Source: Candidatus Leptofilum sp.
GTDB lineage: Bacteria; Chloroflexota; Anaerolineae; Promineifilales; Promineifilaceae
Direction of reading: 5' to 3'
Assembly: GCF_965223525.1 (NCBI RefSeq)
Contig: NZ_CBDCWX010000005.1
Span: forward strand, 323,414 to 387,413
Length of the DNA: 64,000 bases
The position numbers were made by a program, and so were the translations under genes. The notes beneath the pieces are model-generated. The model ran no database searches, was not told the origin of the DNA, and saw nothing but the letters and a program-made list of their open reading frames with translations. Every line of letters begins with the position of its first letter. Within the stretch, counting starts at the first letter, position 1. Positions 1 through 20,733 of the stretch are shown piece after piece.

Positions 1-720
1 AATGTTGTCCTCTACACGAATGATGGTCACTCTCCCGAAAGTTTACTGAGCCTGTTTCGCAGCCGAGATGTGGATGGTTTTGTCATTATCTGGAATCACG
101 TTCCGGCCACTTTTATTGATGTTTTGCTAGAGGCAAATGTTCCGTTCGTCATTCTGGGTCGTCGTGTAGAGCATGAGCAAGCTTCTTTCATAGCCCCGGA
201 CAATTACAATGGTGCGCGTACCCTCATGCAGCACCTTATTTCGTTAGGCCATCGGCGGATTGGCTTCACGACGCGCCCAACGATGGGCCACACTCATGAA
301 GATCGCTTTAATGCGTACAAAGATGCCCTCCACGAGGCAACCATCCCCTACGATCCCGATCTGGTTGTGGAAACGCAAATTGAATCCCGTAGCGGTTACC
401 ATGCTGCGAATCAATTGCTCGATCTGGCTGAACCGCCAACGGCCGTATTCGCTTTTCATGATTTTGTGGCCATAGACGCCCAGCAGGCCATTTTGGATCG
501 GGGTCTGCGTATTCCCCAAGATATTGCCCTGGCAGGTTTTGATGGGCTGCGTACCTCTCTTTTTACCTCTCCCCCCATTACCACCGTCAGCCAGCCCTTG
601 GCCCAAATTGGCCAGGAATCTGTTTTAACTTTGCTTCAACTCATCGAAGATGACACCCATCCCCCTATTCAAAAAACATTACCTGTAGAACTCATTATCA
701 GACAATCAACCGTTGCTTAA
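1..720 (+). CDS. LacI-family transcriptional regulator, effector-binding domain only (5' end lies outside the window)
   Basis: Frame 1 is open from base 1 to the stop at 718-720. The product aligns over its whole length with the C-terminal two thirds of the complete LacI-type protein at 13854-14867 (HRRIGFTTRP, EPPTAVFAxHDxVAxD, GLRxPQDIAxAGFD, PVELIxRQST). Confidence 0.85.
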   Translation, partial: NVVLYTNDGHSPESLLSLFRSRDVDGFVIIWNHVPATFIDVLLEANVPFVILGRRVEHEQASFIAPDNYNGARTLMQHLISLGHRRIGFTTRPTMGHTHEDRFNAYKDALHEATIPYDPDLVVETQIESRSGYHAANQLLDLAEPPTAVFAFHDFVAIDAQQAILDRGLRIPQDIALAGFDGLRTSLFTSPPITTVSQPLAQIGQESVLTLLQLIEDDTHPPIQKTLPVELIIRQSTVA

Positions 721-745
721 TCATTGTTAGGAAACAAACATTCAA

Positions 746-1846
746 ATGACAAAAGAAAAAGACCAGACTCACAGTCCTGCTCTTGATGCAGACCTTACGC
801 TGCACAGCAAAGGAAATTTAACACATCTCTTGTCCACTGATGGGCGCACCGAGCCTGCTATGCCCGGCTTTGCCCCCCAATTTCACGACATCGTTGATTA
901 CATTGTAAAAATAACGCATGAAATCTGGGAGGAGCGCGGCATCGGCCGTCTGTACGAATATTATGCCACCAACATGCGTATCCATACGTCCAATGGCGAC
1001 ATCTACACGCGAGATAAAGTCATCGAGGCCACCATTCAGGCATTGGCTGCCTTCCCAGATCGCCGCCTCTATGCAGATGAGGTCATTTGGGCCGGGGATG
1101 ATGAACAGGGGTACTTTTCCTCGCATCGCCTAACGCATGAAGGGCACAACTGGGGGCATTCATCTTATGGGCCACCGACTGGCAAAAAAGTTAGCTACCG
1201 CGCCATTGCCGACTGTGCCGTGGTTGAGGGTGTCATCGTGGAGGAGTGGCTAGTGCGGGATGAGCTATCTTTGGTATACCAGCTTGGCTTTGATGTGCAT
1301 GAAATGGCGCGTCAGTTGGCGCAGCAAGAGGCAGACGTTGGCCAACAATTTATGATTCCTTCTGAGCCAGAGCGGCTCAGAGGCCAGCTTCCACCCGAAG
1401 CCCCGCCTGCTGACTCACAAGCGTTTAACGTTGGCCGGTTTGTGGAGCGAGCCGTTCATGAAATTTGGAATTGGCGCTTATTGAACAAAGTTGATGATTA
1501 CTATACTCCGCAATTTGTTTGTGAATCTGCATCGGGGCGGCGTTTGTACGGCCGTAACCAATACCGCAACTATATCCTATCCCTACTTTCACCCTTCCCA
1601 GACATGGCCGTCTCTGTAGACCACTTTTGCGCCTTGCGCGACGGTCCAAACCGCTACCGTACTGCTACCCGCTGGATCATGACAGGAACCCACACAGGCC
1701 CAGGCATTTACGGTGTGCCCACCGGCCAACAAATTCGCATTATGGGCATTAGCCACCATCTGGTGGAAGACGGCAAATTCATCCAAGAATGGACACTGTT
1801 TGACGAGTTTGCCCTGCTCAAACAGCTTTACAAGCCATCATCGTAA
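746..1846 (+). CDS. two-domain SnoaL-like / NTF2-superfamily protein (ester-cyclase-like), function unknown
   Basis: 366 aa with two consecutive ~130-aa modules. Each has a SnoaL-type layout (THEIWEE / VHEIWNW helix, FPD motif, G.PTGK / GVPTGQ strand, EEW / QEW end). Starts 25 nt after the LacI stop. Confidence 0.65.
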   Translation: MTKEKDQTHSPALDADLTLHSKGNLTHLLSTDGRTEPAMPGFAPQFHDIVDYIVKITHEIWEERGIGRLYEYYATNMRIHTSNGDIYTRDKVIEATIQALAAFPDRRLYADEVIWAGDDEQGYFSSHRLTHEGHNWGHSSYGPPTGKKVSYRAIADCAVVEGVIVEEWLVRDELSLVYQLGFDVHEMARQLAQQEADVGQQFMIPSEPERLRGQLPPEAPPADSQAFNVGRFVERAVHEIWNWRLLNKVDDYYTPQFVCESASGRRLYGRNQYRNYILSLLSPFPDMAVSVDHFCALRDGPNRYRTATRWIMTGTHTGPGIYGVPTGQQIRIMGISHHLVEDGKFIQEWTLFDEFALLKQLYKPSS

Positions 1847-1952
1847 CAATCTGTTCGCTTAAATCACAAAGGAGGTGATGCTGCTCAGAAACACCCATTT
1901 ACAGAAGAGAAAGATGTTTTGCAAAAAATCCCATTTAGGAGAAGAAATTTCC

Positions 1953-3356
1953 ATGAAAAACACACGCTTATTCAGTTTACTTTTATTGCTTTTTGTTGCT
2001 CTATTCTTTGTGGCTTGTGGTTCATCTGGCGATGAAGGCAGTGAAGACACAGCCGAAGACACCACATCAGATGCCGATGTAACAGAAGATGCTGATGAAG
2101 AAATGGACGAAGAAATGGCCGAGGATATGGGGGTTGAAGGCTGCCATATCGCTGCCCCAGCCGAAGATACCGAAATCAATATGATTGGTTGGTCCTTCCC
2201 CATTACCGATTATTATGCCGAAGAGCTAGAAAAATGTAACGGCGTCGAAAATCTTACCGTTAACACAAATCTGCTTGCCTCGGCCGATGCCCAAGAGCAG
2301 GTACGTTTGGCTCTTTCCTCCGGCGGCGATTCCCCCTTTGATATTGTCCATTCGGCCAATTCTGGTGTAGCAGAATGGGCTGGTGAAGGTTGGATGATGC
2401 CCTTGAACGATCTGGTGGATAAATATTGGGATGAATATAACTTGGGCGACATTCCTGAAAAAGCTTGGGAAGGTGCCACAATTGACGGTCAAATCTACGG
2501 TGTACCGATTGTAGGTAACACGCTTCACCTCATTTACCGTCAAGACGTATTTGATGAGCTAGGTCTGGAAGTGCCAGAAACGTATGATGAAGTAATTGAG
2601 GTATGCAACGCAATTGGTTTGGACAATACCGATTGGGATATGCCGTTTACCATTAACCTTTCTGCTGGTTGGGCTTGGGAAATTGAGTTCTTCCAAATGC
2701 TGCGAGCTTATGGTGGTGATTTCCTCAATGAAGACAGCACGCCGGCCTTTAATGGAGAAGCAGGTGTCAACGCGGTTAATAAAATCATTGAGGTTGCTGA
2801 TGCCTGCATGGGTATAGATGGCTACACATTTAGCCTCAACGACCAAGAGGTTGCCTTACAGTTGGGCACCTTACCGTCCACAAACATGTGGGCCAGCCGA
2901 GCAGCCAACATGACCGATCCGGAACGTACCGATTTGGGTGATGTCATTGCTTATGCCCCGGCTCCCCGTGTTACGGCCGATAGCCCCCGTGCTGGCTCTG
3001 CCTGGAACGACTTCTACATGATTCCAGCCACAGCCACCAATGACCCCGATCTCATCTTCCGCATCATCATGGAAGCGGCTGATGAAGAAAGCCAGCAAGG
3101 TGCAGCTGCTGTGGGTATGACCACTCGCGTGGCGGTCGCCGAATTTGGCGGTCCTTATCTGCCAGCAGCCAACCAGACCCTGGCTGAAGGGATCGGCAGC
3201 TACGACAAAAATCCAGCGATCGGTATTGTGCGTGCCAAGCTAGGTGAATTCTTGCCGCTAATTGGTACGGGCGAGATGACTGTTCAAGAAGCACTTGATG
3301 CTGCCGCCGAAGCCTACATCGAAGAAGCAACAGCTCAGGGCTATATTGACGGATAA
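1953..3356 (+). CDS. ABC transporter solute-binding lipoprotein (family-1 / carbohydrate-type)
   Basis: ATG at 1953 is preceded by AGGAGAAG. It has a signal peptide with lipobox FFVAC-GSS and a long acidic tether (DEGSEDTAEDTT...DEEMDEEMAED), followed by a typical extracellular solute-binding fold. The track ORF start at 1875 is an in-frame upstream extension. About 80 percent identical by eye to 15138-16562. Confidence 0.85.
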   Translation: MKNTRLFSLLLLLFVALFFVACGSSGDEGSEDTAEDTTSDADVTEDADEEMDEEMAEDMGVEGCHIAAPAEDTEINMIGWSFPITDYYAEELEKCNGVENLTVNTNLLASADAQEQVRLALSSGGDSPFDIVHSANSGVAEWAGEGWMMPLNDLVDKYWDEYNLGDIPEKAWEGATIDGQIYGVPIVGNTLHLIYRQDVFDELGLEVPETYDEVIEVCNAIGLDNTDWDMPFTINLSAGWAWEIEFFQMLRAYGGDFLNEDSTPAFNGEAGVNAVNKIIEVADACMGIDGYTFSLNDQEVALQLGTLPSTNMWASRAANMTDPERTDLGDVIAYAPAPRVTADSPRAGSAWNDFYMIPATATNDPDLIFRIIMEAADEESQQGAAAVGMTTRVAVAEFGGPYLPAANQTLAEGIGSYDKNPAIGIVRAKLGEFLPLIGTGEMTVQEALDAAAEAYIEEATAQGYIDG

Positions 3357-3373
3357 CTAAGCTGAAGCATAAA

Positions 3374-3410
3374 GGAAGCAAGGGCTTCGCCCTTGCTTCC
3401 TATTTCTTTT
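3374..3410 (+). terminator. intrinsic terminator/attenuator between the binding-protein and permease genes
   Basis: GGAAGCAAGGGC-TTC-GCCCTTGCTTCC forms a perfect 11-12 bp stem, followed by TATTTCTTTT. Confidence 0.8.
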
Positions 3411-3456
3411 AACAGAAATATCCAGCAGCTTTTCGATAATAATCTAGGAGGAGAGT

Positions 3457-4320
3457 ATGAAACGAGATACGTTTTTCAGGTTTGCATCTCCCAGTATTCT
3501 TTTGATGACTTTGCTAATGGTTGTGCCACTGTTTATGGCCATTTGGTTGGGCATGAACTTCATGACCTTTACCAACATTACTGCGCCACAGTTTGTTGGC
3601 CTGCAAAATTATATTGACATATTGAATGATTCCCGCTTTTGGCAATCATTTCGCTTCACGGCTCTGTACGCAGCCATTGTTGTACCCGCAACTATTGTAG
3701 TGGGCTTTACCGTTGCCTTACTACTAGACCAGGTGTCGAGCTTTACCAGAGGCATTTACATGTCTATCTTTTTGCTGCCGTTCATTATTGTGCCAATTGT
3801 CGGGACGTTGATGTTTAAGCAGCTCTTTGAACCGTCGGGGCTCTTTACTTACCTTTATCAGACAATTTTGGAAACAAGATTTCGTTATACCGAAATAACT
3901 GTGAAGGTTTTGATTATTCTTTACGGTATTTGGTATGTGGCTCCCTTTGCCTTTGTGGTTTATTTTGCGGGTTTACAAACACTCTCTCAGGATCAAATTG
4001 AAGCGGCTTCAATTGATGGCGCAACCCGCTGGCAAAAAGTACGCCACATTGTCATTCCTCATTTGCGCTCGTTAACAATTCTGATTTTGCTATTTTCTAT
4101 CATGGACACGTACCGCGTTTTTGATAGTGTATTTGTTCTTTCGGAGCTAAACCCAATTTATAAGGCAGATACAGTAATGACGTATACATTCCAAACGGCG
4201 ATTACGGTACAGCGGCTGGGCAAGGCAAATGCAATGGCCATACTGACCGTCGTAGGAATTATGGTTGTCTTGATTCCAAACTTGATTCAAGCCTACCGTG
4301 AGCAAATTGAGGAGCGTTAA
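3457..4320 (+). CDS. ABC transporter permease (MalF/UgpA-like)
   Basis: 287 aa, about 6 TM helices, binding-protein-dependent transport inner-membrane signature region (...AASIDGATRWQKVRHIVIPHL...). GGAGGAG RBS. Confidence 0.85.
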   Translation: MKRDTFFRFASPSILLMTLLMVVPLFMAIWLGMNFMTFTNITAPQFVGLQNYIDILNDSRFWQSFRFTALYAAIVVPATIVVGFTVALLLDQVSSFTRGIYMSIFLLPFIIVPIVGTLMFKQLFEPSGLFTYLYQTILETRFRYTEITVKVLIILYGIWYVAPFAFVVYFAGLQTLSQDQIEAASIDGATRWQKVRHIVIPHLRSLTILILLFSIMDTYRVFDSVFVLSELNPIYKADTVMTYTFQTAITVQRLGKANAMAILTVVGIMVVLIPNLIQAYREQIEER

Positions 4321-4322
4321 AA

Positions 4323-5327
4323 ATGGAAAAGATAACAAACCCAATCGGCCGTACGTTTATTCATGTGGCTTTGATTCTGTTTGCCGTTTATAGCATTGTG
4401 CCTTTCTTTTGGACAACGTTACAGTCATTTAAGACGTTAAAAGACGCTAATTCGCGCACGCCACTCATCTTTTTTGAGCCAACTTGGGAAAACTATACAG
4501 AGTTATGGTTGCGCTCTGTGCCTGAGAACGGGGCAACAATTGGCTACTTTTTGTTGTTGGCTGTTGTGGTGCTAATTTGTTTACTTTTGTTTGCCCGCTA
4601 CCTGCCGGTGCGTAACAGCATTGTTTACCTCTTTGTAGTAGGTGCGTTTGCTGCTTTGCTGTGGGCAATTCCGCAATTGGTGGATATGGCTAAATTTTAC
4701 GACTACTTTATCAATACGATTATCGTAACGGTGGGGACGGTGGTTGTCTCGATTAGTATTGGCTGTCTGGCTGGGTATTCGTTGGCACGTTACATTGGCT
4801 TTGCCAGTGTCGTCATTTTGATTGCGGCACTTGCGTTCCGTGCCCTGCCTCGTTTGGCGTTTATTTTGCCATATTACTGGATTGGCACAGCCACGAATCT
4901 GCTGGACACGCATATTTTGGTCATCATCACGTTGGTAGCGGTTAATCAACCGTTTACCATTTGGATGCTTCGCAGTTTCTTCATGGACATTCCCAGAGAG
5001 CTTGAGGAGTCGGCTATGGTGGATGGTTGTAATCGCCTCACGGCGTTTACGCGAGTGATTATTCCTATAATGTGGCCGGGGATCATTTCAACGGCGTTGT
5101 TCTCATTGTTGCTAGCTTACAATGAGTTTTTGCTGGTGCGCTTGCTGACGCAAACAAATTGGACGCTGCCTGTGGCAATTTCGCGCTTTACCGGGGGTGA
5201 AGATCCACGCCATCTGACGCTGGCGGCGGCTTCGGCCGTTTCGGCCACGATTCCGATTGTGCTGGTCATTTTGTTCTTCCAGAAGAATTTGGTGAAGGGG
5301 TTGGCCGCTGGTGCAGTGAAAGGATAG
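4323..5327 (+). CDS. ABC transporter permease (MalG/UgpE-like)
   Basis: 334 aa polytopic protein with the EAA-type loop (ESAMVDGCNRLTAFTRVIIPIM). Starts 3 nt after the upstream permease, so the two are probably translationally coupled. Confidence 0.85.
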   Translation: MEKITNPIGRTFIHVALILFAVYSIVPFFWTTLQSFKTLKDANSRTPLIFFEPTWENYTELWLRSVPENGATIGYFLLLAVVVLICLLLFARYLPVRNSIVYLFVVGAFAALLWAIPQLVDMAKFYDYFINTIIVTVGTVVVSISIGCLAGYSLARYIGFASVVILIAALAFRALPRLAFILPYYWIGTATNLLDTHILVIITLVAVNQPFTIWMLRSFFMDIPRELEESAMVDGCNRLTAFTRVIIPIMWPGIISTALFSLLLAYNEFLLVRLLTQTNWTLPVAISRFTGGEDPRHLTLAAASAVSATIPIVLVILFFQKNLVKGLAAGAVKG

Positions 5328-5449: not shown

Positions 5450-6772
5450 ATGAAAATCAGACCGTTTTTTATCGTAATTGCTGCTGTTGCTGGCCTTCTT
5501 GTCTTGATAGGAATGCAGTCCAATGCGGCCGCAGGTGAAGCTATGGCTGTTCAGGCAGTAGAGCAGGCGCGTGTCCCTGATCTGGAACCGCCCGCCATTC
5601 AATCATTGCGGCAGCTTTCGATTGATGGCTTGCGGGGACGGACGTTCCGTTCATCCATAACCATTGAAGAACAGCTTGGTGATGCTAATGGCTCATCAGA
5701 CTACTCTCAGTTTTATGGCGTGCCTTACTACAACACCTACATGGCCTCTTACCAATCTGATGGATTGAATGTCTATTCTCGCGTTGATATTCCCCCAACG
5801 GAAATGCCTGAAGATGGTTACCCCGTCATTGTTTTTGCTCACGGCTGGGTGGGTGCCAATGGTGCACCAGGCTACACGTTTAACTACGCCGCCAGCTCAT
5901 ACTATGGCGACATGCTGGATGCTTACGTGAAAGCGGGCTATGTTTTGCTCATGCCTGGCTTCCGTGGGCACGGTACGGTGAATGGTGTCCCTGCTGACGG
6001 CATTGAGTACATGCACGCCTATGACAATGGCAGCTACCTCTCGACGATGTTTTACGCCATTGATATTCTCAATTTGCTGGGTGGCGTTGATTCGCTTAAT
6101 CACACAGATTGGGCAGCCTGGGGTGCGGGCGATGTTAAAATTGATACCAGCCGCATCTACCTGACAGCACATTCGCAGGGTGGCGATGCTGCCTTCACCG
6201 CGCTGACTGTATCCAGCAGCCCGAAATTGGATAATCATTTTGCCGCTGCTTCGCTTTGGGCCAGCAGCATTGAAGGACGCATTGAGCAAGGCGCATTCCT
6301 GGGGCCGCAAGAGTGGAGTTCCGATGCCTGGACAGACCCAGCTTACTTCCCGCACATGCCATCATGGTGGGATCCCGCCTGGTCTACCGCCACCATCGAG
6401 GATGGCCTTGCCAACCGCAAAAACACGATGTACGACACCGTGAATACGTACGTGGCTGATCAAGGGAATGCTGAGCCAGATACAAATTCTCTGGTAGAGA
6501 TTATGGCTACGCTGGATGCGGCCAAGCATACGCAGTACATCACCGCACCGCTTGATCTTCATTATTCGGATATGGATCATTATTCAATTCCTGAGTGGAA
6601 TGAGGGGATTATGCGAAAACTACGTATGATGGGCGGTTCTGGGAATACGTATCTGTATGCGGGAAATTCGCATGAATTCAGGGTGATTGATGGCTGGTCG
6701 CCTGTCGGCGCTGAGGCTGGGCGCGACCTAGCAATTGAGCGAACAATTGCACTCTTCAATGACACGCAATAA
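5450..6772 (+). CDS. secreted alpha/beta-fold hydrolase (esterase/peptidase-like)
   Basis: N-terminal signal peptide, oxyanion-type VIVFAHGW, nucleophile elbow AHSQGG. AAGGAGAAAA RBS. Confidence 0.6.
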   Translation: MKIRPFFIVIAAVAGLLVLIGMQSNAAAGEAMAVQAVEQARVPDLEPPAIQSLRQLSIDGLRGRTFRSSITIEEQLGDANGSSDYSQFYGVPYYNTYMASYQSDGLNVYSRVDIPPTEMPEDGYPVIVFAHGWVGANGAPGYTFNYAASSYYGDMLDAYVKAGYVLLMPGFRGHGTVNGVPADGIEYMHAYDNGSYLSTMFYAIDILNLLGGVDSLNHTDWAAWGAGDVKIDTSRIYLTAHSQGGDAAFTALTVSSSPKLDNHFAAASLWASSIEGRIEQGAFLGPQEWSSDAWTDPAYFPHMPSWWDPAWSTATIEDGLANRKNTMYDTVNTYVADQGNAEPDTNSLVEIMATLDAAKHTQYITAPLDLHYSDMDHYSIPEWNEGIMRKLRMMGGSGNTYLYAGNSHEFRVIDGWSPVGAEAGRDLAIERTIALFNDTQ

Positions 6773-6793
6773 CGTTCTTTACGTTTTTACAGT

Positions 6794-8131
6794 ATGGTAA
6801 AACATGTAGAGTTAGCCAGACGGAACAAGCAGTTCACCCTGACATCCTGGCAGACCCAAAATGGCTGGCGGCCGGTTAGCATGGCGCGAGCCGACGACGT
6901 CTACTTTTGGGACGCCAACGGTAAGCGCTACCTGGATTGGTCGTCTCAACTGGTTAATGTCAATATCGGCCACAACAACCAGCAGGTAATTGAAGCCATT
7001 CAGGCTCAGGCGGCTAAGTTAACCTATGCTATGCCGTCACTCGCCACCGAACCACGTGCTCGGCTGGGTGAACTGCTGGCAGAGATTACACCGGATGGTT
7101 TAACCAAGAGCTTTTTTACGCTAGGCGGCGCGGACGCTATTGAAAATGCCATGAAAATTGCCCGGCTGGTAACGGGTCGGCAAAAAATATTGACCCGTTA
7201 CCGGGCTTATCATGGGGGCACCTTTGGCGCGATGTCTGCTGGCGGCGATCCGCGCCGTCTGGCTAATGAACCGGGCGTCCCCTGGATTGTGCGTTTGCAC
7301 GATCCTTATGCTTACCGCAGCCCGCTTTATGACGGCCGTACCCGCGACGAAGGCGATCAGGCTCTCATTGACCAAATGGCCGAGACAATTGAGTATGAAG
7401 GCGCAGACAATATCGCCGCCGTTTTGTTGGAAGGTTACAGCGGCACCAGCGGTATCATTCAAGGCGAGGAGGTTTATTGGCGGGGCGTGCAGCAGTTGTG
7501 TGACCAGTACGGTCTGCTGCTGATTATTGATGAGGTGATGAGTGGATACGGCCGTACCGGCAAATGGTTTGGCGTTAATCATTATCCCTGGGTCAAGCCA
7601 GACATCATAGTGATGGCCAAGGGGCTTACCAGCGGCTATGTACCGCTGGGCGCAGTAGTGGTTTCCGAGCAGATTGCGGCTCATTTCGAAGAAAATGTAC
7701 TGTGGGCGGGCCTGACATACAGCGCACATGCCCTGGCCTGTGCCGCCGCCATTGCCAATATCCAGGTCTATCGCCAGCAAGATCTGATTGAGCGTTCAGC
7801 CAAAATGGGTCAGGTGCTGCGAGCGGGGCTGGTTGCTCTGGCCGAAAAACATCCCTCCGTGGGCGATATTCGCGGTACCGGGCTGCACCAGGTTATTGAA
7901 CTGGTCAAAAATCGGGACAGCCGCGAGCCGTTTAGCCCCTTTAACCAGCCCATGACCGAACCGATGCAAAAGGTAGCGGCTTTGCTGCTAGCCAATGGGA
8001 TGAGTACCTTTGTCAAATGGAACTGGATTTTCTGCACGCCGCCGCTCATCATCAATGAAGCTCAAATTGAAGAAGGATTAAGCATTATTGACAAGGCACT
8101 GATGCTGGCCGACGCCTATACCGAGGGCTAA
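6794..8131 (+). CDS. class III (omega-type) PLP-dependent aminotransferase
   Basis: 445 aa. DEVMSGYGRTGKWFG and VMAKGLTSGY (PLP lysine) motifs and the overall layout of the beta-alanine/taurine-pyruvate aminotransferase group. Confidence 0.85.
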   Translation: MVKHVELARRNKQFTLTSWQTQNGWRPVSMARADDVYFWDANGKRYLDWSSQLVNVNIGHNNQQVIEAIQAQAAKLTYAMPSLATEPRARLGELLAEITPDGLTKSFFTLGGADAIENAMKIARLVTGRQKILTRYRAYHGGTFGAMSAGGDPRRLANEPGVPWIVRLHDPYAYRSPLYDGRTRDEGDQALIDQMAETIEYEGADNIAAVLLEGYSGTSGIIQGEEVYWRGVQQLCDQYGLLLIIDEVMSGYGRTGKWFGVNHYPWVKPDIIVMAKGLTSGYVPLGAVVVSEQIAAHFEENVLWAGLTYSAHALACAAAIANIQVYRQQDLIERSAKMGQVLRAGLVALAEKHPSVGDIRGTGLHQVIELVKNRDSREPFSPFNQPMTEPMQKVAALLLANGMSTFVKWNWIFCTPPLIINEAQIEEGLSIIDKALMLADAYTEG

Positions 8132-12845: not shown

Positions 12846-13733
12846 ATGCACACCAAAGCCCTGCCTTACATTTTGCTGCTCAGTCTGTTTTGGGGAACCA
12901 ATGTGGTTGCCAGCCGCTTTGGCATTGGCGAATTTGATCCCTATCTTTTCGTCACCCTCCGTTTAGCAATAGCCACCCTGTTTTTTGTACCCATCTTGCT
13001 CCTAAACCAGGGCCAGCTGCCGACAAACCGAGAATTATGGCAAAAAGCGGCCGTTAGTGGTGTGCTGGGGGTTGCCATTCCCATCCCCACCTTTATTTTG
13101 TCATTGCAATACCAATCAAGCGGCGTTGCCAGCATCTATGTGACCACTCTGCCCGTGATGATTGTCATTGCCGCTCATTTTCTACTGCCCGATGACCCCA
13201 TAACGCGCCACAAAGCCTTGGGAGTGGCTTTGGCACTGTGCGGCGCACTCTTTTTGGCTTTGCGTGGCGAAAGCGGCTTGGCCGATGTAGGTCGTGCCAG
13301 TCCATTGGGCTTTCTTCTGGTCATGGTTGGTTTGGTTTCAGAAGTGTTCAATACGATATTTGTCCGCCTTCAGATGCAAAAGTTAGACCCGATGCAGGTA
13401 ACGGCCGTTCGCCTACTGGTCGCTGCAATTATCGTTTTATTCGTCACGCTGCTGTTGGGTGATTTTTCACTTGCAAAAGTAACGTTAAATGGTTATTTCT
13501 CGTTGGCTTACGCCGCACTTATTGGTGCATTAGGTGGTCAATTTATGGCCTTCTACGTCCAGCGACGATTTGGCGCCACAGCCTTTTCTCTCACCTCCTT
13601 TATGGTGCCGGTCATCGCCACGATTTTTGGCGCACTCCTGCTTGGTGAAATTGTGACATGGGCAATGGGTCTTGGCGTTTTGCTGATTGGCAGCGGCTTG
13701 TATCTGCTCAATAGGCGTAACTTTGCTCACTAA
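12846..13733 (+). CDS. EamA/DMT-family transporter
   Basis: 295 aa, about 10 TM helices arranged as two EamA-like halves. Confidence 0.75.
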   Translation: MHTKALPYILLLSLFWGTNVVASRFGIGEFDPYLFVTLRLAIATLFFVPILLLNQGQLPTNRELWQKAAVSGVLGVAIPIPTFILSLQYQSSGVASIYVTTLPVMIVIAAHFLLPDDPITRHKALGVALALCGALFLALRGESGLADVGRASPLGFLLVMVGLVSEVFNTIFVRLQMQKLDPMQVTAVRLLVAAIIVLFVTLLLGDFSLAKVTLNGYFSLAYAALIGALGGQFMAFYVQRRFGATAFSLTSFMVPVIATIFGALLLGEIVTWAMGLGVLLIGSGLYLLNRRNFAH

Positions 13734-13772: not shown

Positions 13773-13801
13773 TTGACAAGAAATCGTTTTCCGACTATAT
13801 T
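13773..13801 (+). promoter_or_regulatory. sigma-70-type promoter of the LacI-family gene
   Basis: TTGACA (13773-13778), 17-nt spacer, TATATT (13796-13801). Confidence 0.5.
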
Positions 13802-13828
13802 TTTTGATGAATAGGAAATCGTTTTCCT
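13780..13828. promoter_or_regulatory. two LacI-type operator candidates GAAATCGTTTTCC
   Basis: The identical 13-mer occurs at 13780-13792 (inside the promoter spacer) and within the near-palindrome AGGAAATCGTTTTCCT (13813-13828). Central CG is typical of LacI-family operators. Confidence 0.45.
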
Positions 13829-13853: not shown

Positions 13854-14867
13854 ATGGCTATAACAATTCAAGACATTGCCAATCACCTCAACTTAGCACC
13901 TTCGACTGTCTCTAAAGCATTAAACGACTATCCGCACATCTCACCAAATACACGAAGCCGGGTTTTGACGGCCGCACGAGAGCTGGATTATGTACCCAGT
14001 GCCGCTGCCCGTAACTTGCGCCGTCGTCGTACAGACAAGATTGGGTTTTCCTTTAGCTTTCCGTTTTCTGTAATGAGTGATTATGTTTCTGGTCTTATTG
14101 CTGGTGCGGTGACTGCCGCTGAAGAACAAGGTTACAATTTAACCTTGTACCCCCTGTTAGATGATCAAGTAAGGCAATTGACTCAAATTTGCCGTGCCCG
14201 CGAAGTGGATGGCCTGCTTCTGCTGGGTCGGCCGCAAATGGCGGAAACCACTCTGCCTTTGCTAAAGCAGGAGGGCATTCCTTTTGTTGTAGTTGGGCGC
14301 TGGGCGGAAGACCAAGACATCTCTTTTGTTAAGCCAGATGATCCCAGCGGGGCTGTAGCCGTAACCAAACATTTGATTGAGTTAGGCCATCAGCGCATTG
14401 GCTTTACTACACGGCCGTCTATGGGTATCACCAGCCGTGATCGGTTTGCAGGTTATAAGCAGGCGCTTGAGGAAGCAAATATCCCCTTTGACAAAACTTT
14501 GGTTGTAGAAACCAATTTTGAACCAGAAAGTAGCTACTTAGCCATGAATCAACTGCTTGATTTAGATGAGCCACCAACGGCCGTATTTGCCATTCATGAT
14601 TTAGTTGCAGTGGACTGCTTACGAGCCGCAGTAGATCGTGGCTTACGCGTTCCCCAAGACATTGCCATTGCCGGGTTTGACGACTGGCGTATTTCCCTCA
14701 CAACACAGCCACCATTAACAACTGTTCAGGCTCCGCTGGAAAAGATGGGAGCATGTGCAATGGACATTTTGTTAGCACAAATATCTGATCCCAGCCGCCC
14801 GCCTAAACGCCTGATTTTGCCCGTTGAACTGATTGTCCGTCAATCCACAAAAGTTAGCCGACTGTGA
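13854..14867 (+). CDS. LacI-family transcriptional regulator (complete)
   Basis: N-terminal HTH (ITIQDIANHLNLAPSTVSKALN...SRVLTAARELDYVPSAAARNLR) plus a periplasmic-binding-protein-like effector domain. Confidence 0.9.
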   Translation: MAITIQDIANHLNLAPSTVSKALNDYPHISPNTRSRVLTAARELDYVPSAAARNLRRRRTDKIGFSFSFPFSVMSDYVSGLIAGAVTAAEEQGYNLTLYPLLDDQVRQLTQICRAREVDGLLLLGRPQMAETTLPLLKQEGIPFVVVGRWAEDQDISFVKPDDPSGAVAVTKHLIELGHQRIGFTTRPSMGITSRDRFAGYKQALEEANIPFDKTLVVETNFEPESSYLAMNQLLDLDEPPTAVFAIHDLVAVDCLRAAVDRGLRVPQDIAIAGFDDWRISLTTQPPLTTVQAPLEKMGACAMDILLAQISDPSRPPKRLILPVELIVRQSTKVSRL

Positions 14868-15137: not shown

Positions 15138-16562
15138 ATGAAAAACACACGCTTATTCAGTTTACTCTTATTACTAATTGCCGCCGTCTTCTTTGTGGCT
15201 TGCGGCTCATCCGGTGACGAAGGCAGTGAAGACACAGCCGAAGACACCACATCGAATGCTGAAGTAGCAGAAGACACCGATGAAGAGATGGACGAAGAAA
15301 TGGCAGAAGATGCGGATGAAGACATGGCAGAAGATATGGGTGTTGAAGGATGCCATATCGCTGCCCCAGCCGAAGACACCGAAATCAACATGATTGGTTG
15401 GTCCTTCCCCATCACCGACTTCTACGCTGAAGAGTTAGAAAAGTGCAACGGTGTGGAGAACCTCACCGTCAACACTAACCTGCTGGCTGGAGCCGATGCC
15501 CAAGAGCAAGTTCGCTTGGCACTGTCCGGCGGTGGTGATTCGCCATTCGATATTGTGCATGGTGCCAATGGTCAGGTAGCTGAATGGGGCGGCCCTGGCT
15601 GGCTGATGCCACTCAACGATTTGGTTGATAAATATTGGGATGAATACAACCTCGGTGATATTCCTGAAACTGTTTGGGAAGGGGCAACAATAGATGGCAA
15701 TATTGTTGGCATTCCAATGGTAGGGAATACGCTGCACTTTATCTACCGTCAAGATACCTTTGATGAGTTAGGTCTAGACGTGCCAGAAACGTATGACGAT
15801 GTTATCGCCATCTGCAACACCGTCGGTCTGGATAATCCCGATTGGGATATGCCGTTTGCCATCGATTTATCGCGCTCCAGGGGTTGGGAGCTTGAGTTCT
15901 TTATGCTGCTCCGAGCCTACGGTGGTGATTACCTGGATGATGATAACATGCCAATCTTCAATGGTGAAGAGGGTGTTTTGGCAATTGAAAAAATTGTTGA
16001 GGTAGCGAATGCTTGTTTAGGTGAAGACGGCCTCTCTTTCAGCCTAAATGACCAGGAAGTTGCTATGCAGCTAGGTACGTTACCGTCTACAAAAATGTGG
16101 GCTAGCCGAGCAGCCAACATGAGCGATCCAGAAAGAACTGATCTGATGGATGTGATCGCCTACGCACCTGCCCCTCGGGTAGTTGAAGGTGGCCCACGCG
16201 CAGGGTCAGCCTGGAACGATTACTTCATGATTCCGGCCACCACAACAAACGATCCCGACCTGATCTTCCGTATCATCATGGAAGCAGCCGATGAGGCTTC
16301 TCAGCAAGAGGCGGCTACATTGGGCATGGTTACACGCACGTCTGCAGCTGAATTTGGTGGCCCTTATCTGCCAGCCGCAAATCAAACCATTGCGGAAGGT
16401 GTTGGTAACTACCAAATAAACCCAGCTGTAAACATCGCTATTACTAAACTTGAGGAGTTTTTACCATTAGTGGGCAATGGCGATATGACTGCCCAAGAAG
16501 CGCTGGATGCAGCGGCTGAAGCATACATTGAAGAAGCCACAGCTCAAGGTTTCATAGAATAG
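15138..16562 (+). CDS. ABC transporter solute-binding lipoprotein, paralog of 1953-3356, no adjacent permeases
   Basis: Same signal peptide/lipobox (FFVAC-GSS) and an acidic tether with one extra DADEDMAE-type unit. About 80 percent identity by eye. AGGAGAAG RBS. Confidence 0.85.
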   Translation: MKNTRLFSLLLLLIAAVFFVACGSSGDEGSEDTAEDTTSNAEVAEDTDEEMDEEMAEDADEDMAEDMGVEGCHIAAPAEDTEINMIGWSFPITDFYAEELEKCNGVENLTVNTNLLAGADAQEQVRLALSGGGDSPFDIVHGANGQVAEWGGPGWLMPLNDLVDKYWDEYNLGDIPETVWEGATIDGNIVGIPMVGNTLHFIYRQDTFDELGLDVPETYDDVIAICNTVGLDNPDWDMPFAIDLSRSRGWELEFFMLLRAYGGDYLDDDNMPIFNGEEGVLAIEKIVEVANACLGEDGLSFSLNDQEVAMQLGTLPSTKMWASRAANMSDPERTDLMDVIAYAPAPRVVEGGPRAGSAWNDYFMIPATTTNDPDLIFRIIMEAADEASQQEAATLGMVTRTSAAEFGGPYLPAANQTIAEGVGNYQINPAVNIAITKLEEFLPLVGNGDMTAQEALDAAAEAYIEEATAQGFIE

Positions 16563-16729: not shown

Positions 16730-17713
16730 ATGAACCAACAGATTAAACAATTCGTCTGGGATTATTGGCAAACGATGGAAAATGGAGGTGATGCTCGCAC
16801 TGTTTCTCACTATTTACATCTTGATGTCATTTGGCACGGCTTTCAACCGCTGCGCCATCTAAAGGGTGCATCTGAAGTATGGGCACAGTTTTGGAAACCC
16901 CTGTTTACGGCCATGCCAGATTTGGTGAGACGGCCGTATCTCTTCATCGGTGGCCCGTTTGAAGGGAATGATTGGGTGTGCGGCACGGGGGATTTCATCG
17001 GCACTTTTGCCACAGATTGGCAAGTGGGGGATATTGTCATTCCTGCCAACGGCCGTTCTGTTCATTTTCGCTTTGGCGAATTTTGTCGGGTAACAGATGG
17101 CAAAATTGCCGAAATTCGACTCATCATTGACCTAATTGATTTGCTAAGGCAGGTTGGAATACAGTTATTGCCGCCCAGCTACGGCCGTGACATTTGGATT
17201 CCAGGGCCGTTAGCAGGCGACGGCCTCTGCCTTGACCATCAAGACGAAGATGAATCACAAAAAACCTATGCGCTTGTCACCGAGATGATTTTTGGCGGAC
17301 TGAACAAATACGACGGCGAAAATCAGGCCAGCCAGGGGTTAGAACGTTTTTGGCAACCAGACATGGTGTGGCACGGGCCTGTTGGCGTTGGGTCAGCCTA
17401 TGGCCTGGCGGAGTTCAAACAGAACGCGCAGGGGCCAATTGTGCGAGCTTTTCCAGATCGCAAGGGGGTTGGTCACCAGGCACGTATTGCCGACGGCCGT
17501 TTCGCCGCATCAACCGGCTGGCCGAGTCTAGGCGGAACCCATCTGAACCCTTACCTGAATTGGCCACCAACTGGCGAACCCATCGGCTGGAACATTATGG
17601 ATTTTTGGCGACGCGAAGGGAACAAACTGCAAGAAAATTGGGTCTTGATCGATCTGATTGACGCCGCTTTGGCCTCAAACGTTGATTTATTACAAGGGTT
17701 GCACCATGCTTGA
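16730..17713 (+). CDS. two-domain SnoaL-like / NTF2-superfamily protein
   Basis: 327 aa. The C-terminal module has W.GPVGVG ... IMDFWRREGNKLQENWVLIDLID. The N-terminal module has ...FRFGEFCRVTDGKIAEIRLIIDLIDLL. Confidence 0.7.
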   Translation: MNQQIKQFVWDYWQTMENGGDARTVSHYLHLDVIWHGFQPLRHLKGASEVWAQFWKPLFTAMPDLVRRPYLFIGGPFEGNDWVCGTGDFIGTFATDWQVGDIVIPANGRSVHFRFGEFCRVTDGKIAEIRLIIDLIDLLRQVGIQLLPPSYGRDIWIPGPLAGDGLCLDHQDEDESQKTYALVTEMIFGGLNKYDGENQASQGLERFWQPDMVWHGPVGVGSAYGLAEFKQNAQGPIVRAFPDRKGVGHQARIADGRFAASTGWPSLGGTHLNPYLNWPPTGEPIGWNIMDFWRREGNKLQENWVLIDLIDAALASNVDLLQGLHHA

Positions 17714-17854: not shown

Positions 17855-18607
17855 CTACAGCAACGGCCGTCCGCCATCCACAGGCACAATATTGCCCGTC
17901 ATAAAAGTGAGCTTCGTGGCCACAGCCCAAACCGTCTCGGCAACATCTTCTGGAGACGCGAGACGCTTGAGCGGCGTCATTTCTTCTTGCTGCCTAATGT
18001 AAGCTGGATCCATCTTTTTAGCGTACTCACCCAGCACCCAGCCCGGCGAGACGGACACAACACGAATTTTGGGCGCCAGCGCACGCGCCAAAGAGCGGGT
18101 CATTGAATCCAACGCCGCTTTTGAAGCACAATACGCCACATTGCTGCCAACCCCCGTCACCCCGGCAATGGATGATAAATTCACAATTGTGCCGCCGTCA
18201 TCTGCCTGCAACAGCGCTTTGAAAGCCCGCACAGAAGCAAAAGCGCCCCGCCAGTTAGTCTGGAAAATCCGGTCAATCCATCCGTCACTCAACGCATCTA
18301 GGTCTTCATGCGGCACGGGCGTGGTGATGCCTGCATTATTAACAAGCAAATCCAGACGGCCGTACCGCCCTGCCACCTGTTCTGCCAAGCCAGCCAAAGC
18401 AGCACTGTCGGTTACCGAAGCCTGCGCCACCAAATGATCGCTTCCTGGCAATTGCGCGGCTACCGCTTCTGCCTGCTCCACGCTCTTGCGGTAGGTAATA
18501 ATCACCTTTGCACCCGCCGCAGCCAGCCGCTGGCAAATGGCCGAGCCAATACCGCCCCCGCCGCCCGTAACCAGCGCAACCTGCCCCTGCATTGAACGAG
18601 CATTCAT
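17855..18607 (-). CDS. short-chain dehydrogenase/reductase (SDR)
   Basis: TGGGGGIG cofactor motif, NNAG, catalytic S...YCASK. Confidence 0.85.
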   Translation of the reverse strand: MNARSMQGQVALVTGGGGGIGSAICQRLAAAGAKVIITYRKSVEQAEAVAAQLPGSDHLVAQASVTDSAALAGLAEQVAGRYGRLDLLVNNAGITTPVPHEDLDALSDGWIDRIFQTNWRGAFASVRAFKALLQADDGGTIVNLSSIAGVTGVGSNVAYCASKAALDSMTRSLARALAPKIRVVSVSPGWVLGEYAKKMDPAYIRQQEEMTPLKRLASPEDVAETVWAVATKLTFMTGNIVPVDGGRPLL

Positions 18608-18609
18608 GG

Positions 18610-19887
18610 TTAACGGCCGTATCGTTCAACGCGCAAATCTGCCTGGGCTTTATGCGCCCAGAACCGCTCAATGGCACACAACCGCGAACAGTATTCACCA
18701 ATCATTGCGCTGGCCTCATCCGTCTCTACACGTTGGTAAGTCACCGTTTTGATAAACTTGCCAACCCACAGCCCGCCCGTGTAGCGTGCCGCCAGCTTGG
18801 TGGGCAGAGTATGGTTGGTGCCAATCACCTTGTCGCCATAAGCTACGTTGGTGCGGGGGCCAATAAACAATGCGCCATAGTTGGTCATGTTGTTCAAAAA
18901 GTAATCGTCGTCGGCCGTCATAATTTGCACATGCTCACTAGCAACTTTATCCGCCTCAACACACGCTTCTTCCAGACTGTCTACTAAAATGATTTGCCCA
19001 TAATCACGCCAGGAAACGCTGGCAATATCGGCCGTTTCCAGCGTTTCTAGCTGGCGACCAATTTCAACTTCGGTTTCCCGCGCCAGCTTTTCACTGGTGG
19101 TAATAAGCACGGCCGGAGAGGTAGGCCCATGTTCTGCCTGGCCCAGCAGATCGGTGGCTACCATTTCAGCATCCACCGTGTCGTCGGCCACAACCAGCAC
19201 CTCTGTGGGGCCAGCCAGCAGATCAATGCCCACTTTGCCAAAAAGCTGACGCTTAGCTTCAGCTACATAGGCATTGCCGGGGCCCACAATCATATCCACT
19301 GGTTCCATCGTTTCTGTACCCAGCGCCATGCGGGCAATGGCCTGCACACCACCTAAAATGTGAATTTCATCCGCGCCACCGAAGTGCATGGCTGTAATGG
19401 TTTCAGCAGGCAGTTCGCCATTGATGGGGGGCGTACAGGCAATGATGCGCTTGACGCCAGCCACTTTGGCCGTTAGCACGCTCATGTGGGCGGAAGCCAC
19501 CATGGGATATTGACCGCCGGGAATGTAGCAGCCTACGCTATTGACGGGGAGGTTTTTATGTCCCAAGATGACTCCTGGCAACGTTTCCACCTCAATATCG
19601 CGCAGAGCGTCTTTTTGATGCTGGGCGAAGTTGCGAATTTGCGTCTGAGCAAATTTAAGGTCTTCAATGGTTTGCGGATCAACAGAGGCAACAATTTCCT
19701 GGATTTTTGCATCGCTTAATTTGAAGCTGGGCGGATCCCACTTATCGAATTTAATTGAGAGGTCGCGGACGGCCGCATCCCCCCTCTGCCGAATATCATC
19801 TAAAATGCCAGCAACAATTTGCTGAACCTTCACGTCTGCGTCGTGTGCTGCTTCGGCACTAATGCCATGTTTTAATATTTTTGCCAT
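18610..19887 (-). CDS. histidinol-dehydrogenase-family (HisD-like) NAD-dependent dehydrogenase
   Basis: MAKILKH start with GGGAGTAAGGA RBS (the track ORF start 19956 is an upstream extension). [12 protein letters not shown] motif and overall HisD architecture. The catabolic rather than his-operon context suggests a non-histidinol substrate. Confidence 0.75.
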
Positions 19888-19980
19888 TTTCCTTACTCCC
19901 TTTTGATGATTAAAAGGTAACTGTACAATCCCCCTCTCTAACCCTCCCCCAAACAAAAGGGGAGGGAACGGCTCTTACAG

Positions 19981-20733
19981 TTACATTTGTTTGATAATTT
20001 GTTCAGCGGCAGCCGCCAACAGGCGGGAATCTGCCGACAAGGTGATAAATTGATAACCAAGCTGCTTCATTTGCTGGCCGCGATCAGCGGTAGGTACCCA
20101 GATTCCAGCGATACGGCCGTTGGCTAATGTAACCTCAGCAATGTGAGCCAAGGCAGCCGCCAGGACGGGGTCACCCATGTCCATCCCCGTTTGCCCAGTG
20201 AGCGACAGTCCCAGGTCACCAGGGCCCACATAAACGCCGTCCAATCCAGGTGTGTCCAAAATGTCGGTGAGATTGTTCAGGGCTTCTTGGGTTTCTATCA
20301 TGGCCAGGGTGAGGATGGAGTCATTGGCATGTTGGGCATAGTCTGGCCCGATAGAGAGGCGAGCACGGGTTGGCCCCAGGCTACGGTAACCCAGCGGCGC
20401 ATAGTAACAGGCCCCCACAAACTGTTCTGCCTCTGCCCGGTTATTCACCATAGGGCAGATGATGCCCTGGAAACCAGCATCTAGCAAACGCATAATTTGG
20501 GCGGGGTCGTTCCAGGTGCTGCGTGCCAGGGCGATTGTGCTGGTTGTGTTGATGGCTTGCAGCATGGCAACGGCCGTTTCATACCCAGCCAGGCCATGCT
20601 GTAAATCAACCGTCACGGTGTCCCAGCCCGCGTGGGCCATCACCTCGGCAGACCATGTGCTGGGAATGTGCAACCATCCGTTAACGGCCGTCTTCCCCTC
20701 GGCCAAAATAGTGCGTAAATGATTCAATCGCAT
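19981..20733 (-). CDS. HpcH/HpaI-family (class II) aldolase
   Basis: 250 aa. WLHIPS...VTVDLQHG, ...LAMIETQEA..., GVYVGPGDL motifs of 2-keto-3-deoxy-acid aldolases. Confidence 0.8.
   Translation of the reverse strand: MRLNHLRTILAEGKTAVNGWLHIPSTWSAEVMAHAGWDTVTVDLQHGLAGYETAVAMLQAINTTSTIALARSTWNDPAQIMRLLDAGFQGIICPMVNNRAEAEQFVGACYYAPLGYRSLGPTRARLSIGPDYAQHANDSILTLAMIETQEALNNLTDILDTPGLDGVYVGPGDLGLSLTGQTGMDMGDPVLAAALAHIAEVTLANGRIAGIWVPTADRGQQMKQLGYQFITLSADSRLLAAAAEQIIKQM

Follow-up and report, generated by a model that had tools for sequence, protein, structure and literature searches.

Gene content of the island

We analyzed a window of 64 kb from a genome of Candidatus Leptofilum, a genus of filamentous Chloroflexota, in which the first 21 kb form a gene island that ends near 20.8 kb. 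In this island, genes encoding proteins of the SnoaL/NTF2 superfamily are interleaved with genes for LacI-type regulators, for the solute-binding proteins (SBPs) and permeases of an ABC importer, and for enzymes that include a short-chain dehydrogenase/reductase (SDR), a protein resembling histidinol dehydrogenase (HisD), and an HpcH aldolase (Table 1). The best reading of the island is a regulated locus for the uptake and breakdown of a small polar compound, built around five old NTF2/SnoaL families, designated types A, B, D, E, and F. More specifically, we lean toward regarding the region as the Candidatus Leptofilum form of an old, widespread, and uncharacterized multi-NTF2 catabolic locus for a polyol-like solute. 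A preliminary description of this DNA had called the island catabolic, a view upheld by the uptake system, the LacI regulators, the dehydrogenases, and the aldolase, and had been unable to assign it to a known pathway. The latter statement also stands: no paper describing a multi-NTF2 cluster was found in a literature search, and no characterized pathway matching the island was found in the literature or in NCBIfam.

TABLE 1 Genes and other features of the island, with positions in the 64-kb window (aa, amino acids; HTH, helix-turn-helix; AF2, AlphaFold2)
Feature	Position	Strand	Evidence or remark
LacI regulator 1 (LacI1), C-terminal 239 residues	1..720	+	Peripla_BP_3 and Peripla_BP_1; 52% identical to LacI2
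Type A, two-module SnoaL, 366 aa	746..1846	+	SnoaL, 117 bits, two stretches
SBP1, sugar-type CUT1-like binding lipoprotein	1953..3356	+	SBP_bac_1; lipobox ..FFVAC-GSS, acidic linker
Perfect 13-bp-stem hairpin between SBP1 and permease genes	3373..3401	+	Strongest stem-loop in terminator scan
ABC permease 1	3457..4320	+	BPD_transp_1; nearest NCBIfam GlcT, UgpA
ABC permease 2	4323..5327	+	BPD_transp_1; nearest NCBIfam GlcU, MalG
Exported alpha/beta hydrolase, N-terminal hydrophobic leader	5450..6772	+	AF2, Foldseek, Ser242-Asp376-His408
Class III aminotransferase	6794..8131	+	Aminotran_3, 290 bits
Frameshifted single-module SnoaL remnant	8142..8405	+	tblastn versus C, E=1e-7
Type B, single-module SnoaL, W.GPAGIG type	8499..8993	+	Pfam
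Type B copy (called C)	9005..9505	+	Pfam; 65% identical to B
Type D, two-module SnoaL	9598..10605	+	Pfam, two stretches
Fe-dependent alcohol dehydrogenase (Fe-ADH)	10646..11809	+	Fe-ADH, ADH_Fe_C
Type E, two-module SnoaL	11823..12836	+	SnoaL_2 in N-terminal half, SnoaL in C-terminal half
EamA-family transporter	12846..13733	+	Pfam
Promoter-like TTGACA-17-TATATT and two operator cores GAAATCGTTTTC	13773..13828	+	Promoter scan, palindrome search
LacI regulator 2 (LacI2), full length	13854..14867	+	LacI HTH and Peripla_BP_3
SBP2, binding lipoprotein	15138..16562	+	Pfam; 78.7% identical to SBP1
Type F, two-module SnoaL	16730..17713	+	Pfam, two stretches; AF2; Foldseek
SDR	17855..18607	-	Pfam
HpsN-like four-electron alcohol dehydrogenase, Histidinol_dh family	18610..19887	-	PF00815, 461 bits; GGQYPM
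HpcH/HpaI class II aldolase	19981..20733	-	PF03328; 7o5w, E=1.3e-55
Palindrome TGAATACGTATGCA, upstream of HpcH-HisD-SDR operon	20785..20798	.	Palindrome search

The NTF2/SnoaL proteins

The earlier count of six intact SnoaL genes with ten modules was confirmed, since the products of all six genes matched the SnoaL (PF07366) or SnoaL_2 (PF12680) profile above the Pfam gathering score. When the ten modules were compared with all 64 kb by tblastn, the matches were confined to positions 854–17710, including a remnant at approximately 8212–8406. This remnant, previously described as decayed, is indeed a broken single-module gene split over two frames; its N terminus, MNNQENKRNVWDFWQKL, resembles type F, and its core, in another frame, matches gene C.

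The type F protein is 100% identical to an entry annotated “ester cyclase” of Candidatus Leptofilum sp. Its AF2 model (predicted local distance difference test score, pLDDT, of 89; predicted template modeling score, pTM, of 0.89) consists of two NTF2 cones (helix-helix-helix-sheet) joined by a low-confidence linker. In Foldseek comparisons, the model matched IdmH (6hnn), ChaU (8kaa), SnoaL2 (8r2b), AclR (2gey), and LEH with a probability of 1.0 and target-normalized template modeling (TM) scores of 0.75–0.88 per module; SnoaL, AknH, and PhzA/B were also matched, and sequence identities were ~20% or less throughout. The NTF2/SnoaL fold proposed for these proteins is thus upheld by Pfam, AF2, and Foldseek. 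Their top sequence match in the PDB was 8ysb, a “predicted ester cyclase,” and no specific NCBIfam name was obtained for the genes, the sole match (TIGR02096) being far below the cut-off. The proteins therefore resemble the SnoaL/NTF2 superfamily in their alpha+beta cone fold and in their profile scores; however, they differ from its known members in their low identity (~20%), their two-module fusions, their own residue set (W-x-G-P, D-x-x-R, N-W, D), the presence of four or five distinct paralogues together, and their location in a solute-uptake operon instead of a biosynthetic cluster.

The ten modules fall into three groups: five W.GP-type modules, the N-terminal halves of D, E, and F, and both halves of A. 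The motif W.GP.G[IV]G occurs in five of the ten only (B, C, and the C-terminal halves of D, E, and F), and the previous statement that most modules share a private motif set does not hold. Pairwise identity among modules is 13–38%, with the exception of B and C (65%), and the full-length D, E, and F proteins are 30–35% identical to one another. In comparisons of 15–34 sequences per type, each half of D, E, and F was seen to retain many polar residues: W-x-G-P ... D-[FVY]-[WY]-R ... N-W ... D is common to the W.GP-type modules, and R-R ... W ... R-x-x-E-F ... E ... D ... Q is common to the N-terminal ones. The invariant Asp/Arg/Asn/His/Trp constellations in both modules of D, E, and F fit working pockets and an anionic ligand, with which the many conserved arginines would also be compatible. 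The Asp/Arg/Asp pattern recalls what we take to be the water-activating triad of LEH. SnoaL itself is an aldol cyclase with a polyketide substrate and the catalytic residues Asp121, His107/His119, and Gln105. The positions that we presume to correspond to the SnoaL triad read Asp (of the DFWR motif), Asn, and Val in the W.GP-type modules, which we regard as a lead and not as a result.

Conservation and age of the NTF2 set

In a survey in which one genome per species was used and open reading frames (ORFs) were labeled against the window proteins, 35 loci were collected, mostly from Anaerolineae, plus three from Acidimicrobiia. The fetched locus records are cited here by L numbers; L001 is from a sister Leptofilum genome with 85–91% DNA identity to the window region, L004 is the same stretch as L001, and L014 repeats L002. 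The order [LacI]-A-SBP-permease-permease-(B)-D-F-E recurs in about 35 Chloroflexota/Acidimicrobiia loci, and the compact form is seen in L002, in which adjacent genes are separated by 1–4 bp or overlap by 4 bp. Across the surveyed loci, the SBP, the permeases, D, E, and F are mostly 65–90% identical (SBP1, 75–86% in most Chloroflexota loci), and LacI and A are ~45–55% identical. Type A orthologues (34–57% identity) are present in most of the fuller clusters examined and adjoin LacI in Chloroflexota and in most of the Alphaproteobacteria examined. Type F has more than 500 homologues, of which the best 120 listed are 62–100% identical and derive almost entirely from Chloroflexota. The two-module family is nevertheless small: with type E as the query, 167 representative clusters were recovered at E<=1e-30 among 1.84 billion.

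A tblastn search of plasmids added 24 further records, from organisms including Vibrio, Ruegeria, Phaeobacter, Marinovum, Octadecabacter, Tritonibacter, Paracoccus, Ensifer (an unannotated record), Mesorhizobium, Rhizobium, and the haloarchaeon Halobellus limi. In reciprocal comparisons, the Vibrio pelagius orthologues shared 69% (E), 56% (D), 49% (F), and 35% (A) identity with the window proteins; in Ruegeria conchae and Marinovum, the values were 49–50% (E), 56% (D), 33–38% (B), 34% (A), and 63–64% (HisD-like). Among the alphaproteobacterial clusters compared (Ruegeria, Marinovum, Paracoccus, Octadecabacter, and Mesorhizobium), the order was mostly E | UgpC-SBP-P1-P2-(D')-B-HisD-D-SDR-LacI-A-bicupin-(MetE-II)-alpha/beta hydrolase-RraA; the Octadecabacter and Mesorhizobium clusters are rearranged, and the flanks sometimes carry an Amidohydro_2 protein, an SMP-30 lactonase, or an HpcH aldolase. 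On the Halobellus limi plasmid NZ_CP031313.1 (L039, positions 146759–151828), four two-module genes and one single-module gene annotated “ester cyclase,” which are 36–47% identical to those of the window, adjoin an ABC system, a GcvT-like protein, and a MetE-II protein. The presence of the set on a haloarchaeal plasmid implies transfer between domains of life. This census, covering the ~35 Chloroflexota/Acidimicrobiia loci, the Proteobacteria, and Halobellus, indicates that the NTF2 genes are kept together as a set.

Each NTF2 type is closer to its orthologues in other phyla than to its paralogues in the same island, from which it follows that the two-module architecture and the paralogue set are old and have been inherited as a unit. 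The preliminary description had instead proposed an unusual amplification by local duplication and fusion, which in its full form would mean that a recent, lineage-specific expansion of SnoaL genes created a pathway private to this genome. Some local duplication is real, as seen in B/C (65%), SBP1/SBP2 (79%), LacI1/LacI2 (52%), and the one decayed copy, and judging from the sequences these three pairs look like the only later duplications. However, the low identity among the modules and among D, E, and F, the existence of orthologous types in other phyla that are closer to D, E, and F (49–69% for Vibrio; 50–56% for D and E of Roseobacter) than these are to one another, the two-module architecture in every lineage examined, and the synteny of the set across phyla make a recent private amplification highly improbable.

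Uptake system and its regulation

The two LacI genes reported previously were confirmed; the frame of LacI1 is open from base 1, indicating that this gene is cut by the window edge. The pair of ~80% identical binding lipoproteins and the single permease pair were likewise confirmed, SBP1 and SBP2 being 74.5% identical at the DNA level. The region thus has the constituents of a LacI-controlled CUT1 uptake operon, namely a regulator with a LacI HTH and a periplasmic-binding fold, an SBP_bac_1 protein, and two BPD_transp_1 permeases. No ABC ATPase gene was found in the first 21 kb; supply of the ATPase in trans is usual for CUT1-type transporters, and a MalK/UgpC-type ATPase adjoins the cluster in L050 and in the proteobacterial clusters. 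The hairpin between the SBP1 and permease genes may act as an intra-operon attenuator; this position is usual for a partial terminator that raises the expression of the binding protein. Polyol ABC transporters of the SmoEFGK type are the closest known importers: they have the same permease family, and the nearest solved structure to SBP1 is the sorbitol-bound 4rya. This SBP match (E=6e-14) is, however, too distant for a ligand to be deduced, and we rejected such an assignment.

The TTGACA-17-TATATT element at 13773–13801, just upstream of LacI2, is the top sigma-70-like site in the first 20 kb. Its spacer contains AAGAAATCGTTTTCCG, and a perfect palindromic variant, AGGAAATCGTTTTCCT, follows at 13813; the two operator cores lie at 13780–13791 and 13815–13826. 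The 12-bp core GAAA[AT]CG[AT]TTTC precedes LacI, or lies in the gap separating LacI from A, in 19 locus records, of which 17 are distinct because L004 and L014 repeat L001 and L002, against a chance expectation that we estimate at ~0.01 per 20 kb. This is good comparative evidence that GAAA[AT]CG[AT]TTTC is a putative LacI operator governing the core operon. Elsewhere in the window, no LacI2 operator was found at up to three mismatches. The idea that the genes are co-regulated is therefore supported in part by the conserved LacI-type operator, but control of the whole island by a single regulator is not. The palindrome TGAATACGTATGCA is tentatively assigned as a second operator; in L001, GAATACGTATTC lies 60 bp upstream of the HpcH gene.

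LacI and type A genes are immediate neighbors, often with a 4-bp overlap (L040:15699-17689, L044:3371-5402, L002:2921-5127, and others), and this adjacency is common to Chloroflexota and Alphaproteobacteria despite their otherwise different gene order. Type A may make or process the inducer.

A third subfamily of HisD/HpsN-type dehydrogenases

The HisD-like protein of the island is closer to sulfopropanediol dehydrogenases of the HpsN kind (8v35, from Cupriavidus pinatubonensis, E=1.6e-110; 8wwe, 4e-103) than to any true HisD (top match, 2e-83). About half of the residues aligned with 8v35 are identical, and the catalytic Glu-His (..SEH..) and Asp-Lys (..GDK..) pairs are kept in this alignment. 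In HpsN, the motif G-R-Y-A/S-H contains His126, which hydrogen-bonds the sulfonate, and the corresponding HisD motif is G-S-A-P-L (PMC11382572). The window protein instead reads G-G-Q-Y-P-M, and all 14 distinct cluster-linked orthologues read G-G-[RKE]-[YF]-P-[ML], giving the overall motif GG[RKQE][YF]P[ML]. A function as true HisD was rejected, since G-S-A-P-L is missing and the neighboring genes encode an SDR, an aldolase, and NTF2 proteins instead of a his operon. The motif, unlike that of either HpsN or HisD, places the enzyme in a third subfamily, which is predicted to catalyze the four-electron oxidation of a primary alcohol beside a hydroxyl- or amino-bearing carbon. The window gene is 63–65% identical to its alphaproteobacterial counterparts.

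The relationship to HpsN raises the possibility of organosulfonate catabolism, in which the substrate would be a C3/C2 sulfonate or a conjugate (2,3-dihydroxypropane-1-sulfonate [DHPS], cysteinolate, taurine, or a glyceryl- or acyl-linked form); the HisD-like enzyme would fill the role of HpsN, the aminotransferase would form sulfoacetaldehyde from taurine, and the isethionate made from it by reduction with the Fe-ADH would leave the cell through EamA. Apart from the closeness to sulfopropanediol 3-dehydrogenases, this scheme draws on the top PDB match of the aminotransferase, the taurine:2-oxoglutarate aminotransferase 6jix (E=2.6e-110; next match, 1.6e-76), on a sub-threshold match of the Fe-ADH to the sulfoacetaldehyde reductase SarD, and on the report that HpsN homologues also oxidize L-cysteinolate (PMC12814064). 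However, the SarD match reached 269 bits where the cut-off is 700, not even the sister genome has the aminotransferase, and no Xsc, SuyAB, CuyA, sulfite exporter, sulfite dehydrogenase, or other gene for the desulfonation of sulfolactate or sulfoacetaldehyde was present in the annotated or Pfam-labeled loci. Because the sulfonate-binding His126 and the G-R-Y-A/S-H motif are replaced in the window protein and in all 14 orthologues, we down-weighted this reading and consider it unlikely.

The genes around the dehydrogenase are consistent among distant hosts. An SDR gene accompanies the HisD-like gene in L006, L019, L024, L026, and the alphaproteobacterial clusters; both genes lie inside the NTF2 block in Alphaproteobacteria, the HisD-like gene lies among the NTF2 genes in the Acidimicrobiia records L026 and L027 (with the SDR beside it in L026), and HpcH-HisD-SDR directly follows E in L006. 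The island aldolase matches PF03328, and its close relatives are hydroxyketoacid aldolases. Between loci, the aldolase alternates between HpcH and RraA-like proteins at a kept position, which argues for a conserved aldol-cleavage step. In Halobellus, an aldehyde dehydrogenase and a beta-hydroxyacid dehydrogenase stand in place of HisD and SDR. Together, these substitutions suggest three conserved steps: oxidation of an alcohol to an acid, oxidation of a secondary alcohol, and aldol cleavage.

Proposed pathway and the evidence that weighs against it

The recurring kit consists of a CUT1-like ABC importer, usually a LacI regulator, and types A/B/D/E/F, to which an HpsN-like dehydrogenase, an SDR, and a class II pyruvate aldolase are added in many lineages. 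In the pathway that we propose, a small neutral-to-anionic polyol-like solute, possibly carbocyclic or branched and possibly methyl-bearing, would be imported; one annotation pipeline names the Marinovum permease a “various polyols” permease. The solute would not be phosphorylated, because no kinase gene was present in any annotated or Pfam-labeled cluster examined; glycoside hydrolase and polyketide synthase (PKS) genes were also absent from these loci. The SDR would oxidize a secondary alcohol to a ketone, and the HpsN-like enzyme would oxidize a primary alcohol, next to a hydroxyl-bearing carbon, to a carboxylate. The NTF2 proteins might then serve as cofactor-free acid/base catalysts on carbonyl-activated intermediates, with enolization-driven isomerization, beta-elimination (dehydration), and water addition with ring opening as candidate reactions, and the aldolase would release pyruvate. 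The exported hydrolase, an addition in Leptofilum, may release the solute from a precursor that holds it by an ester or amide bond.

Such a route would resemble the non-phosphorylative sugar-acid pathways (L-rhamnose LRA1-4/YfaU), which use no kinase, proceed by oxidation and then by cleavage to pyruvate with a class II aldolase, and depend on ABC transport under LacI- or GntR-type control. Unlike the island, those pathways use enolase-superfamily or IlvD-type dehydratases and lactonases, in place of which NTF2 proteins are found here. Polyether epoxide hydrolases of the Lsd19/MonB type may offer a second precedent: they are fused or paired NTF2 modules, each performing one cofactor-free step of a cascade. 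They are, however, biosynthetic and act on hydrophobic polyketide substrates.

Several points weigh against the catabolic pathway as proposed. The chemistry of the NTF2 proteins is assigned from the known abilities of the fold, and Asp121 and His119 of SnoaL are, judging from their presumed positions, probably not kept in the W.GP-type modules, which is a lead only. In the window, the operator occurs only upstream of LacI2, and the first operon has its promoter beyond the window edge. In Vibrio pelagius and Phaeobacter piscinae, the transporter is accompanied by three or four NTF2 genes, but HisD, SDR, and aldolase genes are lacking; the oxidative and aldolase part is thus not obligatory, and the NTF2 proteins can work without an oxidative branch. 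The SDRs of different phyla are only ~34% identical and may not be orthologous. Finally, the SBPs of Chloroflexota and Proteobacteria are 26–29% identical, meaning that the imported compound could differ between lineages.

The same genes have been given names that suggest polyketide tailoring in a secondary-metabolite cluster (“ester cyclase,” “polyketide metabolic process”), and the nearest structures are indeed polyketide cyclases and hydroxylases. However, no PKS, nonribosomal peptide synthetase (NRPS), glycosyltransferase, or resistance gene was found in any locus examined, and the NTF2 genes belong to a LacI-repressed operon that also encodes a solute-binding protein and the permeases of an importer, so that this explanation is hardly credible.

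Methyl-transfer genes and candidate substrates

Methyl-transfer genes are neighbors of the cluster in five settings that are independent of one another: MetE-II in Roseobacters and Halobellus, a GcvT-like gene in Halobellus, sox and MetE-like genes in Vibrio, Meth_synt_2 and DAO in L002, and URO-D/corrinoid/RACo genes in L050. They are one reason to consider mycosporine-like amino acids (MAAs) and gadusol, the methylated C7 cyclitols of cyanobacteria and algae, as substrates. In such a scheme, the NTF2 enzymes would hydrolyze the enaminone/imine substituents and dehydrate or tautomerize the cyclohexenone core, the HisD-like enzyme would oxidize the ring hydroxymethyl group, methyl-transfer enzymes would take the O-methyl group, and ring opening and cleavage would fall to the cupin, hydrolase, and aldolase. 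Known NTF2 enzymes, such as scytalone dehydratase, ketosteroid isomerase, and PhzA/B, act on cyclic enones and imines; the bicupin, alpha/beta hydrolase, RraA-like aldolase, and Amidohydro_2 proteins recall the lower pathways of aromatic rings; and several carriers are phototroph-associated or of marine/saltern origin (coral- and algae-associated Roseobacters, a saltern haloarchaeon, and Vibrio). According to a review, Vibrio harveyi hydrolyzes shinorine and porphyra-334 to mycosporine-glycine and 4-deoxygadusol, the genes for which were not known (PMC3083659). Yet the Chloroflexota clusters, including that of the window, have no cupin or MetE-like genes, soil rhizobia and Paracoccus alcaliphilus are also carriers, and the scheme was devised to suit the gene list; MAA/gadusol catabolism at this locus is therefore decidedly unlikely. 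We know of no catabolic genes for MAAs or gadusol, and none were found in the literature search.

The methyl-transfer neighbors could also indicate an N-methylated osmolyte of the betaine type, with Trp-rich NTF2 pockets binding the quaternary ammonium group and the methyl groups passing to one-carbon metabolism. The many invariant Trp residues, soxBDAG-purU-sdaA in Vibrio pelagius, the GcvT-like aminomethyltransferase gene in Halobellus, the MetE-II genes, and a creatininase-family gene in L007 fit this possibility. However, the transporter is of the sugar/polyol CUT1 type with LacI, and not OpuA/ProX, BCCT, or TRAP; the presence of HisD-like, SDR, and aldolase genes suggests that the carbon skeleton is hydroxylated; and the sox genes of Vibrio, being a standard self-contained block, may be no more than neighbors. 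We accordingly judge a betaine-type substrate very unlikely.

Returning to the polyol-like catabolic locus, a bolder and speculative form of this reading, which we consider improbable, is that A/B/D/E/F constitute an unrecognized cofactor-free NTF2 cascade, possibly a hetero-oligomer, at the core of a widespread pathway for an abundant orphan product of phototrophs, for which MAAs/gadusol or another methylated C7/branched cyclitol would fit best. In any case, a fixed set of four or five different NTF2-fold proteins is shared by Chloroflexota and Proteobacteria at 50–70% identity and is also present in Actinomycetota and a haloarchaeon. Its constant association with an importer, and its frequent association with an HpsN-like dehydrogenase and an aldolase, would point to an entire catabolic route not yet represented in pathway maps, for whose genes annotation pipelines currently give the misleading names “polyketide ester cyclase” and “histidinol dehydrogenase.” If the substrate were identified, an entire NTF2 subfamily would gain functions, the HisD/HpsN enzymes would have a third defined specificity class, and a carbon/nitrogen flux would be added to models of algal-bacterial, mat, or sediment communities. 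Several carriers of the cluster are cultured and hence directly testable.

Some neighbors of individual clusters were also recorded. In L050 (positions 1–2935; Chloroflexota), genes for a URO-D-family methyltransferase, a B12-binding corrinoid protein, and a RACo activator lie ~5 kb upstream of the SnoaL cluster. An SBP56-type protein (selenium-binding; methanethiol-oxidase-like) adjoins the cluster in Marinovum (L041:19488-24927) and Phaeobacter (L042:15777-17174), and the Marinovum cluster is also beside dmdA and other genes for dimethylsulfoniopropionate (DMSP) demethylation.

Accompanying genes and strain-level differences

The aminotransferase, Fe-ADH, EamA, SDR, HisD-like, and HpcH genes listed in the preliminary description were all confirmed by Pfam, and the fold of the secreted alpha/beta hydrolase, which gave no Pfam match above threshold, was settled by AF2, Foldseek, and the catalytic triad. 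The AF2 model of this hydrolase had a pLDDT of 91.8, and Foldseek matched it at a probability of 1.0 to S9 peptidase catalytic domains, CE7 acetyl-xylan esterases, PET46, and feruloyl and chlorogenate esterases, with query-normalized TM scores of 0.5 or less. Ser242 (in H-S-Q-G-G), Asp376, and His408 are invariant in 41 sequences, and homologues are named alpha/beta hydrolase or dienelactone hydrolase. Orthologues occur within the same operon in L049, L050, and L051, that is, in a subset of Chloroflexota only.

The aminotransferase scored above the cut-off for the NCBIfam subfamily PRK06062 and, among the loci examined, was found in this strain alone. In the sister record L001, where it is missing, the hydrolase gene runs straight into the remnant and B, and the comparison of 6794–8131 with L001:1245-1854 shows an insertion or deletion difference between the two Leptofilum genomes. 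In the census of loci, the Fe-ADH (nearest NCBIfam families ErcA, GbsB, and lactaldehyde reductase, all below cut-off) and EamA genes occurred only in these two genomes; in Leptofilum, the Fe-ADH occupies the usual slot of F, and F has moved behind the duplicated LacI-SBP pair. The sequence of uptake, de-esterification, transamination, alcohol-to-acid oxidation, and aldol cleavage proposed earlier was thus over-read, since it relied on genes limited to this strain (aminotransferase), to Leptofilum (Fe-ADH and EamA), or to some Chloroflexota (hydrolase).

The sister genome carries an extra block between F and the aldolase operon (L001:11238-17269) that holds a third LacI gene, a type A counterpart present as two separate single-module genes, another E-type gene (54%), an SBP of reduced length, and a 306-aa protein in which two B-like modules are fused. 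The window is without this block, and its HpcH-HisD-SDR operon is inverted. In a subgroup of Anaerolineales (L007:14497-16617, L012:3113-7878), Ldh_2, creatininase-family, SDR, thioesterase, and fucose-isomerase-like genes replace HpcH-HisD-SDR. Beyond 20.8 kb, the genes of the window are unrelated to the island (an ion channel, an epimerase, a methyltransferase, a TetR regulator, and others), and positions 36605–64000 contain large ORFs, including ones of 887, 906, and 1029 aa.

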